This document shows, piece after piece, positions 57,123-64,000 of a DNA stretch of 64,000 nucleotides. Each line of letters opens with the position of its first letter. The stretch's first letter is position 1. Origin of the DNA: Bacteroidales bacterium (GTDB taxonomy: Bacteria > Bacteroidota > Bacteroidia > Bacteroidales > SZUA-534). Where the stretch lies: NCBI GenBank assembly GCA_045640185.1, contig JAZUEN010000053.1, positions 6,289-70,288 of the forward strand, in the 5' to 3' direction. The position numbers and the translations under genes were made by a program. Under the pieces are notes generated by a model. That model was not told the DNA's origin, made no database searches, and was given only the letters and a program-made list of their open reading frames with translations.

Positions 57123-58511
57123 CTATAGATGAACCAAGCCGTTTTTTACGGCATATAGAATGAGCTCCGTATTGTTGCTGACGCCAAGCTTCTGGTAAAT
57201 TGTCGTTTTGTGGGCGTCGACGGTGCGCTTGCTTATGCATAGTTCGTCGGCAATCTCCTTGCTCAGCTTGCCTTGGCAGCAGGCGCGCACAATTTCAATC
57301 TCGCGGGCCGACAATATGCTTGGCTTGGCATTTATTACCAGTTCCTCGTCAGCAGTGACTGAGTCGGGCGAGGTGGTGTTCTCGTTTTGCTTCCTTGTCT
57401 TGGGGAAAAACAGTTTCCGTGCAATCGATTCAGTGCGCTGAATGTCACGGTGCAGACGGTACAAGACTAACGTAAGTGCGACGCCACCCATAATGGCGAT
57501 AAGCACTATTATAAGTATCCACATCAGATGGTGCTGCCTTTCAATTACAATCTGCAGCTGCGCGTTTTGCCTTTCCTTTTCGGCAGTTTCGTATTTTACC
57601 TCAAATTCGGCCACTTGCGATTGAATTTGCTCGTTGTGCAATGAGTCTTTCAGGTCCATGGCCTTTTGGTACAGGTCCACATCCCTGAGCAATTTAGCAA
57701 GCATGTATGTCGCCTTATACTCGTAAGGCCGCTGGCTTGTCTTCCTACTTATTTCCAGACATTCGTTCAAGATAGTGCGGGCCTTCTGGGGGTCATTGAT
57801 TTTCGTATACAATTTGGACTGTTGCAGCAGATTGATGCAAAGGCTGTGCCAGTTGCATGTTTCGCGGAATACGGCCGTTGACGTGGCAAGCGCCTTTTCG
57901 GCTTTAGCGTACTCTCCCACGTAGATGTAGGTGTTGCCCAGCTGCGAGAGCCGCATGGCCGCCCTTTCAATGCGGTTGTCCGCAGTGTCGAGCGAGTAGG
58001 CGTATTCAATATGATAAATGGCCTCTTCGTATTTTTCTTCAAGGGTCAGAATCTCGCCTAACGTTCCGTGCCGCGAGGCCAGCATTGCAATGTCGTCTTT
58101 CGGGACCATGCCAAGAGCGTCGTTCATGTATGTCTCGGCCTCGGCGTACATGTTTTGATGCGTAAATATTGCCGATATCAGTGCCAGCGATGACGATATG
58201 TAGGCGGAGTCGCCCAGCTGCCGGTCGATGTCGAGCGCCTTGGAGCCATAGTCGAGCGCTTTCTCGTATTTTCCAAGGCACCAATATGAATAAGTAAGCC
58301 CGTTGTAGGTATCGGAGAACATCTCTAGCGAGTCGCTATGGATGAGTGTGAGCGCTTCTTCGAGTACACGCGCCGAGTTGGCATAGTCTTTTATCTCAAA
58401 ATATTCATCGTACTGCCTATGCAACTCATGATATTTCTGGTTGTTTGACGCCGATGCAACAAAAGAGCATAGCAATATGGCTATTCCCAAAAGATACCTT
58501 TTATTATACAT
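57123..58511 (-). CDS. membrane-anchored TPR sensor fused to a LuxR-type HTH (one-component regulator)
   Basis: Start at Met66 (MYNKRYLLGIAILLCSFVASA signal/anchor). About 300 aa of TPR-like repeats. TM helix LMWILIIVLIAIMGGVALTLVLY. C-terminal LSAREIEIVRACCQGKLSKEIADELCISKRTVDAHKTTIYQKLG. Confidence 0.75.
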   Translation of the reverse strand: MYNKRYLLGIAILLCSFVASASNNQKYHELHRQYDEYFEIKDYANSARVLEEALTLIHSDSLEMFSDTYNGLTYSYWCLGKYEKALDYGSKALDIDRQLGDSAYISSSLALISAIFTHQNMYAEAETYMNDALGMVPKDDIAMLASRHGTLGEILTLEEKYEEAIYHIEYAYSLDTADNRIERAAMRLSQLGNTYIYVGEYAKAEKALATSTAVFRETCNWHSLCINLLQQSKLYTKINDPQKARTILNECLEISRKTSQRPYEYKATYMLAKLLRDVDLYQKAMDLKDSLHNEQIQSQVAEFEVKYETAEKERQNAQLQIVIERQHHLMWILIIVLIAIMGGVALTLVLYRLHRDIQRTESIARKLFFPKTRKQNENTTSPDSVTADEELVINAKPSILSAREIEIVRACCQGKLSKEIADELCISKRTVDAHKTTIYQKLGVSNNTELILYAVKNGLVHL

Positions 58512-59111
58512 ATGATTTGTTTGTGGCAAAAGTATAAAAGCAAATAACATTTTAGGCAAAAATGCAAAAAAATACTTAGGTAAGTGATATGTAAGTCTAT
58601 GTTCCATAAACAAAAAAGCCGGTTTTTGTGGACTACTAAATCCGATGCAACCCAAAGAAACAGGTATAAAAAAGTTCCTCCGCCCGCCCCGATGAAAATC
58701 CCGCATACATCACGGCAGATGGTGGCGTGGAACTTGAGTTAGGCGGTCATGACAGCATTGAACAGAATATCGTAGACTATTTCACTCGTTTGGGAAACGA
58801 CAGCATTTCATTTAGCGGAATAAAGGATTCCGAACCCAAGACAATAAACGGAATACACGTCCGTGAAATGAGGGGCGAGGTTATGAAGGATAAGAATGGA
58901 CATAGGTATTATGGAAGATGAATCCTAAAATATTTGTCACTGAAAAGCAAAAAACTCTATCGGAACCCGCCCGCGTCACCCGCTATCGAAAGCGCCAAAC
59001 AAGTCATTGAAAATATGCATAATCGCACCTTCAGTGCCTGGCATATTGTTTGTTACATAAGAAATATAGGTATTTTAGTGAATCAGCGAACGTTAATTGC
59101 TTTAAATTGAC

Positions 59112-59119
59112 TACTTTTG
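59112..59119 (+). promoter_or_regulatory. putative -7 promoter box (TACTTTTG)
   Basis: Matches TAnnTTTG. Lies 25 nt upstream of the ATG at 59144. Confidence 0.35.
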
Positions 59120-59143
59120 CGCGAATTTTTTTGAAGGTATAAA

Positions 59144-60559
59144 ATGAAACGAAAAATTTCCATTGGTGACATTACAATGAAGCAGGCCGCCGATAAGGCA
59201 GGCTACGCCTTTTCATTCCGTGAGAAGATTGAATTGGCAAAGCTTCTTGACAAACTTGGACTTTCTGTTATCGAGGTTAGTCCCATAGTTGACGGCAAGA
59301 CAGACAGCTTACTCATAAAGTCGCTTGCATCAACAGTTAAAACCAGTGCTGTTGCCGTTCCCCTCAACATTTTTGAGGCCGACACAGTTGACACAACCTG
59401 GAACGCCTTGAAGGGCGCCGCACATCCTCGATTGCAAATCTCGGTTCCTGTCAGCACCGTACAGATGGAATATTTCTGCCACAAGAAACCAGCCGCAGTG
59501 CTCGACCTCATATCAGACCTTACGGCACGCAGCCGCGCACTTTGTCCCGATGTTGAATTCGTTGCCGAAGATTTCGGCCGCAGCGACAAGGACTTTTTGT
59601 GGCAAGCCGTTGAAGCAGCCGTCAAGAACGGCGCAACCATAGTAACCGTATGCGACGCGGCAGGCAACCTGCTGCCCGACGAGTTCTACAGCCTTGTGAA
59701 GCAGGTTAAGGAATCGTTGCCCGAAAACGTAAGGCTTGGCGTACGCTGCTCAAACGAATTCTACCTTGCCGACTCGTGCGCCATATCGGCCGTACGTGCT
59801 GGCGCCGACGAGATAAAGACCGCCCCTTTCGGCAACTTCACCGTCTCGCTCGAACGCTTTGTCAAGATACTGAACGCAAAAGTCGATGTATGCGAGGCCA
59901 CTTGCGATGTACACGCAACCGAACTTCAGCGCGTTGTGAGCCAAATCAAGCGCCTGTGCCAGACCAACCGCTCAAAACCGACATCGTTCAGCAACATCAC
60001 GCCTGAAGACAGGTCCGATATCCAACTGACCATTCACGACGACAAGGAAACCGTGATTGGCGCCGTGCGCAAGCTCAACTACGACCTTACCGAAGACGAT
60101 GCCCAAAACGTGTTCGACGCATTCGTACGCGTGGCTTCAAAGAACGACACCGTCGGCCCGAAGGAACTCGACGCAATAGTCGCCTCGGTGGCATTTCAGG
60201 TGCCTCCAACCTACAAGCTCGAGAGTTACGTCATCAATTCGGGCAATGTGATAACAGCCACCTGCCACATAATGCTCAAAAAGGGCGATGCGGTAATGGA
60301 GAGCGTATGCGTGGGCGACGGCCCAATCGACGCCGCATTCCTTGCAATAGAAAAGGTGATTGGGCGCCACTACGAGCTCGACGATTTTCAGATACAATCA
60401 GTGACTGAAGGCCGCGAAGCAATGGGCGAGACTGTTGTCCGCCTGCGCTTTGAAGGCAAGATATATTCAGGAAGAGGCATTTCAACCGATATCGTCGGCT
60501 CAAGCATCGACGCATATCTTAATGCCGTAAACAAAATAGCATTTGAGGAGGGCGAATAA
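59144..60559 (+). CDS. LeuA/HMGL-like protein with degenerate catalytic motifs and an intact LeuA-type C-terminal domain
   Basis: TIM-barrel HMGL-like N-terminus, but IGDITMKQAAD replaces DTTLRDGEQ and VRCSNEF replaces the HxH metal site. The C-terminal GDGPIDAAFLAIEKV...GRGISTDIVGSSIDAYLNAVNK matches the LeuA dimerisation/regulatory domain. Confidence 0.65.
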   Translation: MKRKISIGDITMKQAADKAGYAFSFREKIELAKLLDKLGLSVIEVSPIVDGKTDSLLIKSLASTVKTSAVAVPLNIFEADTVDTTWNALKGAAHPRLQISVPVSTVQMEYFCHKKPAAVLDLISDLTARSRALCPDVEFVAEDFGRSDKDFLWQAVEAAVKNGATIVTVCDAAGNLLPDEFYSLVKQVKESLPENVRLGVRCSNEFYLADSCAISAVRAGADEIKTAPFGNFTVSLERFVKILNAKVDVCEATCDVHATELQRVVSQIKRLCQTNRSKPTSFSNITPEDRSDIQLTIHDDKETVIGAVRKLNYDLTEDDAQNVFDAFVRVASKNDTVGPKELDAIVASVAFQVPPTYKLESYVINSGNVITATCHIMLKKGDAVMESVCVGDGPIDAAFLAIEKVIGRHYELDDFQIQSVTEGREAMGETVVRLRFEGKIYSGRGISTDIVGSSIDAYLNAVNKIAFEEGE

Positions 60560-63045
60560 TGAAACTGTCATTCTCTACACGTGGCTGGACTGACATGTCA
60601 TGGAGCGAAATCCTTGACAATGCAAGCGAGATGCACTTCGCTGGAGTGGAAATATACAATCTTTTCAAGACACCCGAATTTGTGGCAAAAGGCGGACCTT
60701 TCCACAAATACTCGCTTATGGCCACATTGCGCGAACTGCGTGAAAAGAACCTGTCGATACCCTGTTTCGACACATCGGCCGACCTGTCTATTGAAAAGCC
60801 TGAAATGCTCTCCGAACTCGAAAGCCTTATCGGAATCGCTTCGGACATGCATTGCCCATACGTGTGCGCATTCGCTAAAGACGGCGACGTTGAAACCGTT
60901 AAGAAGAACCTTTCGACACTGATTCCCGTCGCCGAAGAAAAGAACGTCACCATCCTCATCAAGACAAGCGGAATATATGCCGATACAGCCTTGTTGCGCG
61001 ACTTGCTGAACTTCTTCGCCTGCGACCAGGTGGCCGTCATATGGGATGTTCACCACCCGTACCGCGACAAAGGCGAAACGCCATCGCAGACCATAACAAA
61101 CCTTGGAGCCTACATAAAGCATGTACACCTGCGCGACAGCGACGACGCCAACACATATAATATTATAGGCGAGGGCAACTTCCCTATCGCCAATGTGATG
61201 AAAGCCTTGTCGTCAGTTGACTACGACGGATTCATATCGCTGGAATGGAAACCCGAGTGGATGCTCGACTTCACCGACCGCGATGTCATTTTCCCGCATT
61301 TTGTCAACTATATGGGCCAATTCGAGAATACACGTGGCAAGAAAACCGCACTTTATCCTAACCACGACGGCTCGGGATACTACATCTGGAAAAAAGACGA
61401 ACTGCTGAACCTTACCTTCTCAAAGGTCCTCGACCGCGTGGTTGAGGAGTTCCCTGACCAGTACTGCTTCAAATACACCACGCTCGACTATACCCGCACC
61501 TACTCGGAGTTCCGCGACGATGTCGACGACTTTGCACGGGCACTTGTGTCGTTAGGCGTAAGGCCAGGCTCAAAAGTGGCAGTATGGTGTACAAACATTC
61601 CTGCTTGGTACATAACGTTTTGGGCGACAGTAAAAATAGGTGCTGTGCTTGTTACAGTCAACACCGCATACAAGATTCACGAGGCCGAATATCTGCTCCG
61701 CCAGTCAGACACCCACACTCTTGTAATGATTGAGAGTGCGCTCGACTCCAACTACAAGGCCATAATGAACGAACTTTGTCCTGAAATAGCGACAAACGAG
61801 CCAGGCAAGCCGCTTCACTGCAAGCGTCTGCCGTTCCTGCGCAATGTCATAACAGTGGGCTACCGCCAGAAAGGTTGCCTGACATTCCAGCAGGCAATGG
61901 CCCGCCGCGATCTAGTTCCGCTCGAAGAGATTCAGCGCATGGCCGCAGCCGTACATCCCGACGACGTCTGCAATATGCAATACACTTCAGGCACAACAGG
62001 GTTCCCTAAAGGTGTGATGCTTACACACTACAACGTGGTCAACAACGGAAAGTGCATTGGCGACCGCATGGGCCTGTCAACAGCCGACCGCATGATGATT
62101 CAGGTGCCAATGTTCCACTGCTTTGGAATGGTGCTGTCAATGACTTCGTCAATAACACACGCCACAACAATGTGCCCTATGCCGTACTTCTCGGCAAAAT
62201 CATCGCTGGCCTGCATCAACCAGGAGCATATAACCTGCTTCAACGGCGTGCCGACAATGTTCATAGCAATGTTCAATCATCCCGACTACCGCAAGACCGA
62301 CTTCTCGTACATGCGTACAGGCATTATGGCTGGTTCCGGCTGTCCTGCCGACCTCATGCGCCGCGCCGCCGAACCCGACGAGATGAATATGCGGGGCATC
62401 ATAAGCGTTTACGGACAGACCGAAACGGCACCAGGCAACACCATGTCGTCCTGGACTGACGACATCGACGTCAGATGCGATACCGTGGGCTACGCATTCC
62501 CGCACGTGCGATGCAAGATTATCGATCCTGAGACTGGCCTTGAAGTGCCTGCTGGCACAAACGGCGAGTTCTGCTCAAAGGGATACAATATGATGAAGGG
62601 CTACTACAAGATGCCCGACGCCACAGCACAGACAATAGACGCCGAGGGATGGTTGCACAGCGGCGACCTTGCCTGCGTTGATGAACACGGCAACTATCGC
62701 ATCACAGGACGTCTGAAAGATATGATAATCCGTGGTGGTGAGAATATCTATCCTAAAGAAATAGAGGAATTTATATACACACATCCAAAAGTGAAGGATG
62801 TTCAGGTGATTGGCGTTCCCGACGAGAAATACGGCGAAGAGGCAATGGCCTGCATCATACTTAAGGAAGGTGAAAGCATTTCGGAAGAAGATATGCGGGC
62901 ATTCATCGTAGGCCGTCTTGCACGCCACAAGGTGCCACGCTACATCGACTTTGTTAAATCATTCCCGATGAACGCCGCAGGCAAGATTCTCAAGTACAAG
63001 ATGAGGGAAGAGGCTGTGGAGAAGTTGGGGCTGAAGAAGAATTAG
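60559..63045 (+). CDS. fusion protein: xylose-isomerase-like TIM barrel (N-terminal ~270 aa) + AMP-dependent synthetase/ligase (C-terminal ~550 aa)
   Basis: The N-terminus has AP_endonuc_2-like features (HVHLRDS, ISLEWKPEW). The C-terminus has adenylation motifs YTSGTTGFPKGVMLTH, YGQTE, GWLHSGD and the terminal NAAGKILK. The ATG overlaps the upstream TAA (TAATG). Confidence 0.8.
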   Translation: MKLSFSTRGWTDMSWSEILDNASEMHFAGVEIYNLFKTPEFVAKGGPFHKYSLMATLRELREKNLSIPCFDTSADLSIEKPEMLSELESLIGIASDMHCPYVCAFAKDGDVETVKKNLSTLIPVAEEKNVTILIKTSGIYADTALLRDLLNFFACDQVAVIWDVHHPYRDKGETPSQTITNLGAYIKHVHLRDSDDANTYNIIGEGNFPIANVMKALSSVDYDGFISLEWKPEWMLDFTDRDVIFPHFVNYMGQFENTRGKKTALYPNHDGSGYYIWKKDELLNLTFSKVLDRVVEEFPDQYCFKYTTLDYTRTYSEFRDDVDDFARALVSLGVRPGSKVAVWCTNIPAWYITFWATVKIGAVLVTVNTAYKIHEAEYLLRQSDTHTLVMIESALDSNYKAIMNELCPEIATNEPGKPLHCKRLPFLRNVITVGYRQKGCLTFQQAMARRDLVPLEEIQRMAAAVHPDDVCNMQYTSGTTGFPKGVMLTHYNVVNNGKCIGDRMGLSTADRMMIQVPMFHCFGMVLSMTSSITHATTMCPMPYFSAKSSLACINQEHITCFNGVPTMFIAMFNHPDYRKTDFSYMRTGIMAGSGCPADLMRRAAEPDEMNMRGIISVYGQTETAPGNTMSSWTDDIDVRCDTVGYAFPHVRCKIIDPETGLEVPAGTNGEFCSKGYNMMKGYYKMPDATAQTIDAEGWLHSGDLACVDEHGNYRITGRLKDMIIRGGENIYPKEIEEFIYTHPKVKDVQVIGVPDEKYGEEAMACIILKEGESISEEDMRAFIVGRLARHKVPRYIDFVKSFPMNAAGKILKYKMREEAVEKLGLKKN

Positions 63046-63072: not shown

Positions 63073-63105
63073 CGTAAGGTTGGTTTTTATCAGCCTTACG
63101 TTTTG
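63073..63105 (+). terminator. rho-independent terminator
   Basis: CGTAAGG-loop-CCTTACG followed by TTTTG. Confidence 0.6.
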
Positions 63106-63123: not shown

Positions 63124-64000
63124 ATGTCAAAGAATTTAGTAACCATTGACGGCAACGAGGCTGCATCTCATATCGCGTATGAGTTCACAGAAATAGCCGC
63201 CATTTATCCTATCACGCCGTCGTCGCCTATGGCCGAACACACTGACGCATGGTCGGCAAAAGGCAGAAAAAATATTTTTGGCCAGCAAGTCACCTTGATT
63301 GAGATGCAATCGGAGGCAGGTGCCATTGGCGCAGTTCACGGCGCAGCACAGACAGGCTCGCTCGCTACAAGTTTCACATCGAGCCAGGGCCTGATGCTTA
63401 TGATTCCGGTCCTTCACCGTATTGCAGGCGAACGTCTACCTGTAGTTCTGCACGTTGCAGCACGTACAGTGGGCACCCACGCAATGAGCATCTTCGGCGA
63501 CCATTCCGATGTTATGGGCTGCCGCAACACAGGTTTTGCAATGCTTTGCTCAGGTAGCGTGCAGGAAGTTGTCGATATGGCAGGAGTCGCTCATTTGGCT
63601 GCAATCAAGGGGCAGACACCATTTATGCACTTCTTCGACGGGTTCCGCACATCGCACGAGATAAACACCGTTGAAATGATTGACACGCAGAGACTTGCCG
63701 CAATGCTCGACAAGGATGCGCTAGCCGCCTTCCGTGCTCACGCACTCAATCCGGAGCATCCGCTTATGCGTGGCACTGTCCAGAACCCTGACGTCTTCTT
63801 CCAGGTCCGTGAGGCCTGCAACACATACTACGACGCTCTTCCAGAGATTGTTGAGAACTATCTTGGACAGATAAGCGCACTTACAGGCCGCGAATATCAC
63901 CTATTCAACTACTACGGTGCCAAAGACGCCACCGATATTGTAATAGCAATGGGCAGCGTATCGGGCGCAATAAAGGAAGCCGTTGACGAACTGAACGCAA
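63124..64000 (+). CDS. nifJ: pyruvate:ferredoxin (flavodoxin) oxidoreductase, N-terminal part (runs off the window)
   Basis: My translation from the ATG at 63124 gives MSKNLVTIDGNEAASHIAYEFTEIAAIYPITPSSPMAEHTDAW...GFRTSHE, the PFOR domain I signature. The frame is open to the window end. It is absent from the ORF track because no stop codon is reached. Confidence 0.85.
   Translation, partial: MSKNLVTIDGNEAASHIAYEFTEIAAIYPITPSSPMAEHTDAWSAKGRKNIFGQQVTLIEMQSEAGAIGAVHGAAQTGSLATSFTSSQGLMLMIPVLHRIAGERLPVVLHVAARTVGTHAMSIFGDHSDVMGCRNTGFAMLCSGSVQEVVDMAGVAHLAAIKGQTPFMHFFDGFRTSHEINTVEMIDTQRLAAMLDKDALAAFRAHALNPEHPLMRGTVQNPDVFFQVREACNTYYDALPEIVENYLGQISALTGREYHLFNYYGAKDATDIVIAMGSVSGAIKEAVDELNA

Follow-up and report, generated by a model that had tools for sequence, protein, structure and literature searches.

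What does a protein do that joins a sugar-isomerase-like barrel to an acyl-CoA ligase, and why should its gene be coupled to that of a LeuA homologue without catalytic residues? The question is raised by a locus of a Bacteroidales bacterium (lineage SZUA-534), which lies in a 64,000-nt stretch of contig JAZUEN010000053.1 (assembly GCA_045640185.1, positions 6,289 to 70,288 of the forward strand), hereafter the window. An earlier interpretation made from the letters of the window alone (the sequence-only reading) had drawn attention to the gene pair and guessed at a two-protein module that isomerises or dehydrates a hydroxy- or keto-acid and then activates it. The answer that we favour, with moderate confidence, is that the module would salvage isovalerate for leucine synthesis through isovaleryl-CoA and 2-oxoisocaproate, with the LeuA homologue (dead LeuA below) as a leucine sensor. 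The argument is entirely comparative and draws on observations of protein architecture, gene coupling, loss of catalytic residues, regulatory specifiers in relatives, neighbouring genes, an oxidoreductase clade, and the nesting of the window's copy among those of other phyla.

The fusion protein and its LeuA-like partner

The core of the locus consists of the following features, with the evidence for each in brackets.

59144-60559, plus strand: dead LeuA paralog of 471 aa with HMGL-like and LeuA_dimer domains, proposed leucine-sensing subunit (Pfam, NCBIfam, alignment)
60556-60559, plus strand: ATGA stop/start overlap of the dead LeuA and fusion genes, translational coupling (sequence)
60559-61350, plus strand: N-terminal xylose-isomerase-like TIM barrel of the fusion, residues 1-264 (Pfam, AlphaFold, Foldseek)
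61351-61392, plus strand: inter-domain linker of low model confidence (pLDDT 48-65 over residues 251-280 in both models)
61393-63045, plus strand: AMP-forming acyl-CoA ligase domain of the ANL superfamily, proposed isovalerate-CoA ligase (Pfam, NCBIfam, solved relatives)

The open reading frame (ORF) listing and the translation give 60559-63045 (+) as a single unbroken 828-aa frame, and Pfam places three domains on it: AP_endonuc_2 at residues 19-232 (6e-19, 69 bits against a cut-off of 31), AMP-binding at residues 292-683 (1e-85, 288 bits) and AMP-binding_C at residues 734-809 (62 bits). The fusion described by the sequence-only reading is therefore borne out, as are the motifs that it listed, YTSGTTGFPKG, GWLHSGD and the terminal lysine (K809). 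The ANL core motifs are YTSGTTGFPKG at residues 475-485 (A3), YGQTE at 618-622 (A5), GRLKDMIIRGGENIYP at 717-732 (A8) and K809 (the A10 lysine), and all four are invariant among 26 orthologs. By its domains and motifs, the ligase half is an AMP-forming acyl-CoA synthetase of the ANL superfamily, and acyl-CoA formation is predicted. It is also the most conserved part of the protein, with a column identity of 77-97% compared with about 60% for the barrel, the least conserved part. The full-length AlphaFold model (pTM 0.56), in which the linker has low confidence, is uninformative on domain packing.

Among curated families, the ligase domain matches PRK12583 / NF009233 best (663 bits, below the NCBIfam cut-off of 832), and the match spans its full length, with residues 279-826 on profile positions 12-557. 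We take this "fatty acid CoA ligase family" to be of the ACSF2/YngI type. Its members are single-domain proteins, and we know of no PRK12583 member described with a TIM barrel or a dead-LeuA partner. The closest solved relatives of the ligase domain are 8weu/8wev (260 bits). A reading of the acyl pocket from solved structures was abandoned, as the nearest ones, those of feruloyl/fatty-acyl, malonyl and oxalyl-CoA ligases, score 200-260 bits and are too remote for this use.

The fusion is widespread. There are more than 8000 homologues in the database, and the best 120 of them, examined for domain content as the sequence-only reading had proposed, all carry the same three domains at 75-100% identity; no characterised member of the family was found. 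When each species was represented by one genome, a scan gave more than 590 loci encoding the fusion, and 80 of them were retained for neighbourhood work. These come from gut, rumen and faecal metagenome-assembled genomes (MAGs) of Oscillospiraceae, Acutalibacteraceae, Lachnospiraceae, Eggerthellaceae, Spirochaetaceae, Abditibacteriota and a few Bacteroidota, and their fusions are 63-89% identical to that of the window. An assembly or frameshift artefact is ruled out by the hundreds of full-length orthologs. Our literature search found nothing on the fusion architecture or on genes for isovalerate carboxylation.

The partner encoded upstream shares the two-domain layout of LeuA (2-isopropylmalate synthase, a DRE-TIM metallolyase; PDB 3ewb, 3rmj), with Pfam scores of 111 bits for HMGL-like and 104 bits for LeuA_dimer. 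Its nearest profiles are those of bacterial LeuA, and its score of 283 bits, under the equivalog cut-off of 532, is to be compared with 58-64 bits on CimA models, indicating that it fits LeuA models far better than CimA models. An alignment with solved LeuA structures shows that DTTLRDGEQ has become GDITMKQAA in the window's protein and HCH has become RCS. In all 64 orthologs, other residues stand in place of the Arg-Asp of LRDGEQ and of both histidines of HxH, and because the metal-binding Asp and both His are thus gone, dead LeuA should be incapable of the Claisen condensation. The regulatory domain (GDGPIDA ... TDIVGSSIDAYLNAVNK), in contrast, is the best-kept part of the protein, with a column identity of 0.76 versus 0.61 in its barrel, and its per-position match to the LeuA profile also exceeds that of the barrel. 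The dead LeuA gene, unlike that of LeuA, accompanies a ligase gene instead of leuBCD. It stands immediately 5' of the fusion in all 77 loci with upstream DNA, and the two genes overlap by 4 nt in 44 of 62 loci and by 1 nt in 8 of 62, in agreement with the coupling to a degenerate LeuA-like gene that the sequence-only reading had reported. The most likely role of dead LeuA, judged from these comparisons, is to sense leucine and throttle the ligase; it would do so by binding leucine in the retained domain and contacting the barrel of the fusion.

The barrel itself is more ambiguous. Its AlphaFold model has a pLDDT of 91.9, and Foldseek aligns it with AsbF (3dx5), MJ1311 (3wqo), DgpB/C, Art22 and UlaE (3cqi) with a TM of about 0.7, 13-18% identity and a probability of 1.00. 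Profile and fold both place it among AP_endonuc_2 barrels, a group that also holds ketose 3-epimerases, but only generic family members appear among the modelled matches and the complete Glu-Asp-His-Glu tetrad is missing: the window's barrel has K135-D163-H190-E229, with K135 aligned to a metal-ligand Glu, and so keeps three of the four metal ligands. Among 72 orthologs, the tetrad reads KDHE in 49 and EDHE in 14, mostly on basal branches of the tree, and a few have Arg, Cys, Tyr or Thr in the first position.

These data bear on the two-step enzyme guessed by the sequence-only reading, in which the barrel would isomerise, epimerise or dehydrate a hydroxy- or keto-acid and the ligase would activate the product, or the steps would run in reverse order. 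AsbF, the top structural match, makes an acid that is later adenylated in petrobactin synthesis, but it shares the generic level of similarity of the other matches. D163, H190, E229 and several other acidic barrel residues are near-invariant and the basal and split forms (see below) carry a full E-D-H-E tetrad, whereas the first ligand is Lys in most orthologs, the window's included, and the barrel is less conserved than any other part of the protein. In favour of a two-step enzyme, the barrel and ligase go together whether fused or encoded by neighbouring genes, and they do so in both orders; against it, no sugar-acid or hydroxy-acid genes occur in the neighbourhood. Since the first metal ligand is lost (K135), a catalytic first step in the window's barrel is unlikely, and we consider the two-step enzyme quite unlikely as a whole; the comparative evidence favours isovalerate as the acid. 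The barrel is probably a docking or transmission module for dead LeuA rather than a catalyst.

Where barrel and ligase occur apart, they remain neighbours. For close free-standing relatives, a 278-aa barrel query gave truncated fusions only, and a 50% representative library gave 96 clusters at E<=1e-30, most of them fragments or forms of about 265 aa next to a ligase. The barrel thus apparently always occurs fused or adjacent to an acyl-CoA ligase in the sequences searched, which held no other close free-standing relative. In Lachnospirales, 23 of 201 genomes have a barrel relative; about half are fusions without dead LeuA and about half are free barrels of about 265 aa. The free barrels, 30-39% identical to that of the window, each lie directly 3' of a free ligase, which shares 50-54% identity with the ligase domain.

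Loci L091-L097 and L102 (G236, G282, G277, G257, G245, G242, G228, G295): split pairs, a free ligase of about 555 aa followed by a barrel of about 265 aa, in reverse order

The sequence-only reading had held that separate genes in relatives with unrelated neighbours would speak against the fusion. Separate genes are indeed found, but only as distant paralogs, and these have stayed side by side, an argument for functional coupling and not one against the fusion. The further neighbours of the split pairs are heterogeneous, unrelated housekeeping genes that carry no signal, and no T-box or other Rfam element was detected at the Lachnospirales split loci or at the fusion loci lacking dead LeuA. 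The split barrels and the fusions without dead LeuA all retain the Glu, and the split barrels have an intact E-D-H-E. Judged from this distribution, the ligase-barrel partnership predates the leucine module. The split pair may represent the ancestral unit, serving another function, and catalysis by the barrel was probably an original trait; according to the alignment, the metal site of the barrel has been remodelled in the crown group, to which the window belongs.

Leucine T-boxes and sister ligases in related loci

The clearest indication of the physiological context comes from the leaders of related operons. At 8 of 10 Clostridial loci, the Rfam T-box (RF00230) scores above the gathering threshold just 5' of the dead LeuA gene. 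We built a custom covariance model of T-box stem I, which matched 105 copies across the loci, and a match lies directly before the dead LeuA gene in 50 of the 70 loci with sufficient upstream DNA. The specifier is a leucine codon in 49 of these 50 (CTG in 27, CTC in 21 and CTA in one), and the remaining one was misread by the parser.

A second type of ligase gene accompanies the module. In 36 of the 80 loci, genes encoding a helix-turn-helix (HTH, XRE-type)-cupin-AMP-ligase protein adjoin it, often two in tandem, and these have T-boxes of their own, with ATC (Ile) specifiers in 26 cases and valine specifiers in 11 (GTC 8, GTA 3). A further seven ATC and two Val-type stem-I matches precede no gene named by the ORF filter. 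Examples of T-boxes before HTH-cupin ligases are listed here; about 45 more stem-I matches occur in L007-L078.

L005, 2087-2321, minus strand: T-box of an HTH-cupin ligase gene
L020, 8627-8865, plus strand: T-box of an HTH-cupin ligase gene
L074, 1334-1570, minus strand: T-box of an HTH-cupin ligase gene

The top NCBIfam match of the HTH-cupin ligase is MbcS, the methylbutyryl-CoA synthetase of Staphylococcus aureus (NF047394), at 429 bits and below the cut-off of 850; the same family is absent from the 25 best-scoring families of the fusion. Purified MbcS uses 2-methylbutyrate and isobutyrate, and isovalerate only poorly (PMC10026030). The T-box loci look like a three-ligase set with one ligase for each branched-chain amino acid. 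Because leucine T-boxes precede its operon and isoleucine and valine T-boxes precede the HTH-cupin ligases, the barrel-ligase is assigned to leucine, and isovalerate is its putative substrate. Five module-bearing Clostridial genomes have no LeuA or LeuB above the equivalog cut-off; as these are MAGs, the absence is unproven.

These specifiers also bear on a variant of the proposal in which the chemistry is the same but another acid (2-methylbutyrate, isobutyrate or propionate) feeds isoleucine or valine synthesis and dead LeuA senses that amino acid. The LeuA-family regulatory domain of CimA can bind isoleucine, and the substrate is not legible in the ligase sequence. However, nearly all specifiers before dead LeuA are leucine codons, the Ile and Val T-boxes stand on the other ligases of the same loci, and dead LeuA scores several-fold higher on LeuA than on CimA models, as given above. 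We therefore regard this variant as very unlikely.

The oxidoreductase paralog and the proposed route to leucine

The flanking ORFs of the 80 loci were clustered and named by Pfam and NCBIfam. In the window, the gene pair is followed by a gene for a NifJ-type pyruvate:ferredoxin oxidoreductase (PFOR), as the sequence-only reading had noted, and the gene after that lies on the opposite strand, so that the unit in the window consists of three genes.

63073-63104, plus strand: weak hairpin with TTTT between the ligase and PFOR genes (read from sequence)
63124-64000, plus strand, extending past the window: start of a NifJ-type PFOR paralog, proposed 2-oxoisocaproate synthase (TIGR02176)

The full PFOR gene encodes 1156 aa and scores 1685 bits on TIGR02176, against an equivalog cut-off of 911. 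The protein is 62-73% identical to module-linked PFORs of other phyla and 52% identical to the second PFOR of its own genome. The housekeeping role presumably falls to this second NifJ-type PFOR (1186 aa; G000 contig C1:1047-4574, outside the window), and two copies are also present in four of five other genomes. In the PFOR tree, the module-linked copies form a clade of their own with 100/100 support, apart from the second copies. A PFOR-superfamily enzyme is needed for the production of branched short-chain acids in C. sporogenes (bioRxiv 10.1101/401489), which makes branched 2-oxoacids plausible substrates of PFOR-type enzymes. The paralog would thus be a 2-oxoisocaproate synthase working in the carboxylating direction.

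About 10 loci have three-subunit 2-oxoacid:ferredoxin oxidoreductases near the module, and seven have IlvE, the branched-chain aminotransferase (BCAT equivalog, 480 bits against a cut-off of 307). In L072, L075 and L079, dead LeuA, the fusion, IlvE, an ATPase and the alpha, beta and gamma subunits of the oxidoreductase are all encoded on a single strand. The genome of the window has its IlvE on contig C26; neither an MbcS-like ligase nor a three-subunit oxidoreductase akin to those of the loci was found in it.

Two other gene types recur at the loci. An ATPase of about 225 aa, MinD/CbiA-like, is regularly found 5' of the three-subunit oxidoreductase genes (L016, L020, L026, L027, L042, L055, L059, L063, L068, L072, L075, L077-L079, L091) and may be an Fe-S maturation or carrier factor. 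Genes of the Cys_Met_Meta_PP (O-acetylhomoserine sulfhydrylase-type) and HTS (homoserine O-acyltransferase) families lie 3' of the module in L059, L069, L070 and L071, a further link of the neighbourhood to amino-acid biosynthesis.

The leucine T-boxes, the neighbouring BCAT and 2-oxoacid:ferredoxin oxidoreductase genes, and the sister ligases under Ile and Val control lead us to the isovalerate-for-leucine proposal. In this scheme, the 828-aa AMP-forming ligase would activate isovalerate, a fermentation acid, to isovaleryl-CoA. The PFOR paralog would then carry out a reductive carboxylation, in which isovaleryl-CoA, CO2 and reduced ferredoxin yield 2-oxoisocaproate, and IlvE would convert 2-oxoisocaproate into leucine. 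Dead LeuA, with its leucine-binding regulatory domain retained, would exert leucine feedback on the ligase at the protein level, and the N-terminal barrel, with Lys as its first ligand, would be the docking or transmission piece. A stricter form of this idea, an allosteric device in which leucine bound to dead LeuA is relayed through the barrel and shuts off the covalently attached isovalerate-CoA ligase, is offered more tentatively, as a possibility on the doubtful side.

MbcS is the closest characterised analogue in role, being likewise an AMP-forming ligase that scavenges branched short-chain acids into CoA thioesters. It differs in belonging to another ANL subfamily, in having neither a TIM barrel nor a LeuA-like partner, and in feeding fatty-acid priming rather than amino-acid synthesis.

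The module in the Bacteroidales genus and its significance

How did the module come to this genome, and does the salvage proposal hold there? Dead LeuA occurs in 13 of 15 congeners at 79-100% identity, with the fusion following it, whereas none of the 200 other Bacteroidales genomes sampled yielded the barrel. The tree of 76 fusions, for which divergent forms served as the root, places the window next to L001 (support 99) and then with L002 and a Eubacterium locus (97), and this group is nested in a clade of 23 rows (starred in the tree), 17 of which are Bacillota. The simplest reading of this topology is that the module was transferred from Clostridia into the ancestor of this Bacteroidales genus. 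No T-box was found in the window, either by Rfam (E<=1) or by the stem-I model, or in the Bacteroidota loci L001 and L002, and we propose that the Leu T-box leader was lost in this lineage.

In place of the T-box region, a short block upstream of dead LeuA is conserved within the genus.

59034-59143, plus strand: genus-conserved upstream block (alignment of 13 congener upstream regions, of which only the last ~110 nt are conserved)

The block contains the Bacteroidetes -7-type TAnnTTTG box TACTTTTG at 59112-59119, which corresponds to the promoter that the sequence-only reading had placed at 59112. A degenerate sigma-54-like TGGCAT-N5-TTGT is present at 59039-59053, and most congeners (L105-L114) have TGGCACACAATTTGC, a perfect sigma-54 -24/-12 consensus, about 100 nt 5' of the dead LeuA gene. 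The window's genome contains 17 copies of the strict consensus, compared with about 6 expected by chance. One of these, TGGCACGTTTTTTGC, lies about 80 nt 5' of another AMP-binding ligase gene, a 602-aa ORF, outside the window (G000 contig C20:102301). A sigma-70 promoter scan was set aside as not meaningful for Bacteroidota. The divergent gene at 57123-58706 (-) encodes a TPR-TM-LuxR regulator that has no counterpart at related loci or in four congener regions, and it is probably not part of the module.

As for de novo leucine synthesis, the window's genome encodes LeuC, LeuD, MetA, a CimA-like synthase (NF042433, 638 bits), a methyltransferase and LeuB at contig C78:45345-53208, outside the window, and no true LeuA was found across the 96%-complete assembly. 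We do not claim that the module replaced a lost LeuA in this genome, as congeners hold both LeuA and the module.

Several observations weigh against the isovalerate-for-leucine proposal. True LeuA (~657 bits) is present besides the module in 11 of 15 congeners, so the route is not essential in the genus. The leucine link is drawn from orthologs at 63-78% identity, and the window itself is without a T-box. The ligase scores below the cut-off of every curated family, and its substrate is therefore unreadable from its sequence. PFOR lies directly 3' of the pair in only 16 of 80 loci; among four congeners it is adjacent in one, 2.3 kb away in another and not found within 5-7 kb in two. In the window, moreover, the ligase and PFOR genes are separated by the hairpin, with a 7-bp stem (63073-63079 / 63094-63100), a 14-nt loop and TTTT. 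The sequence-only reading had taken it for a terminator; the hairpin is there, but the terminator scan did not call it, and it is weak at best. Ligase-barrel pairs also exist that have neither dead LeuA nor a T-box, and the core unit may therefore have another, more ancient function.

Part of this evidence would fit another function for the Bacteroidales module, namely to supply the isovaleryl-CoA primer for iso-branched fatty acids or sphingolipids, with dead LeuA matching the supply to leucine status. Here the ligase would start from isovalerate and the PFOR paralog from leucine-derived 2-oxoisocaproate, so that isovaleryl-CoA can be the product of both enzymes. Iso-C15 is abundant in Bacteroidota membranes, MbcS serves fatty-acid priming, the window has no Leu T-box, and the congeners retain a full de novo leucine pathway. 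On the other hand, the operon of the donor lineage would, from its T-boxes, be induced by uncharged tRNA-Leu, which fits leucine supply and not consumption, and the neighbours are BCAT and amino-acid biosynthesis genes, with no fatty-acid genes seen nearby. We consider the lipid-primer function unlikely.

Leucine salvage, in turn, connects with an old observation. That rumen and gut anaerobes form leucine from isovalerate was recognised as early as the 1960s, and ruminant diets are supplemented with branched-chain volatile fatty acids as a stimulus for fibre-degrading bacteria. Allison and co-workers (1960s-1984) reportedly established, by physiological and isotopic means and without assignment of genes, that isovalerate is reductively carboxylated to leucine in rumen Bacteroides/Prevotella. 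The route proposed for the module is the same and its habitats are the same, and like the Allison route it coexists with the isopropylmalate route in this genus. A 2020 proteomic study of Prevotella bryantii still considered the reverse route unproven and invoked an unspecific acetyl-CoA synthetase (PMC7709123). The module would offer a concrete gene set for the isovalerate-to-leucine route, namely a ligase, a sensor and an oxidoreductase paralog, and would share the work neatly with MbcS-like ligases that are controlled by Ile and Val. If the allosteric device exists as proposed, salvage feedback would have been achieved by recruiting the regulatory half of the first enzyme of the de novo pathway, a 60-year-old pathway would receive its first gene assignment from the module, and NifJ would gain a clade of dedicated 2-oxoisocaproate synthases.

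New in this genome are the presence of the module in a Bacteroidales genus, nested in Bacillota and T-box-free, and, in relatives, the split pairs. If our proposal is correct, dead LeuA would clearly exemplify the recruitment of a pseudoenzyme as the regulatory subunit of an unrelated enzyme, and the Bacteroidales copy would indicate that the module passes from one phylum to another and does not need its riboswitch to function.

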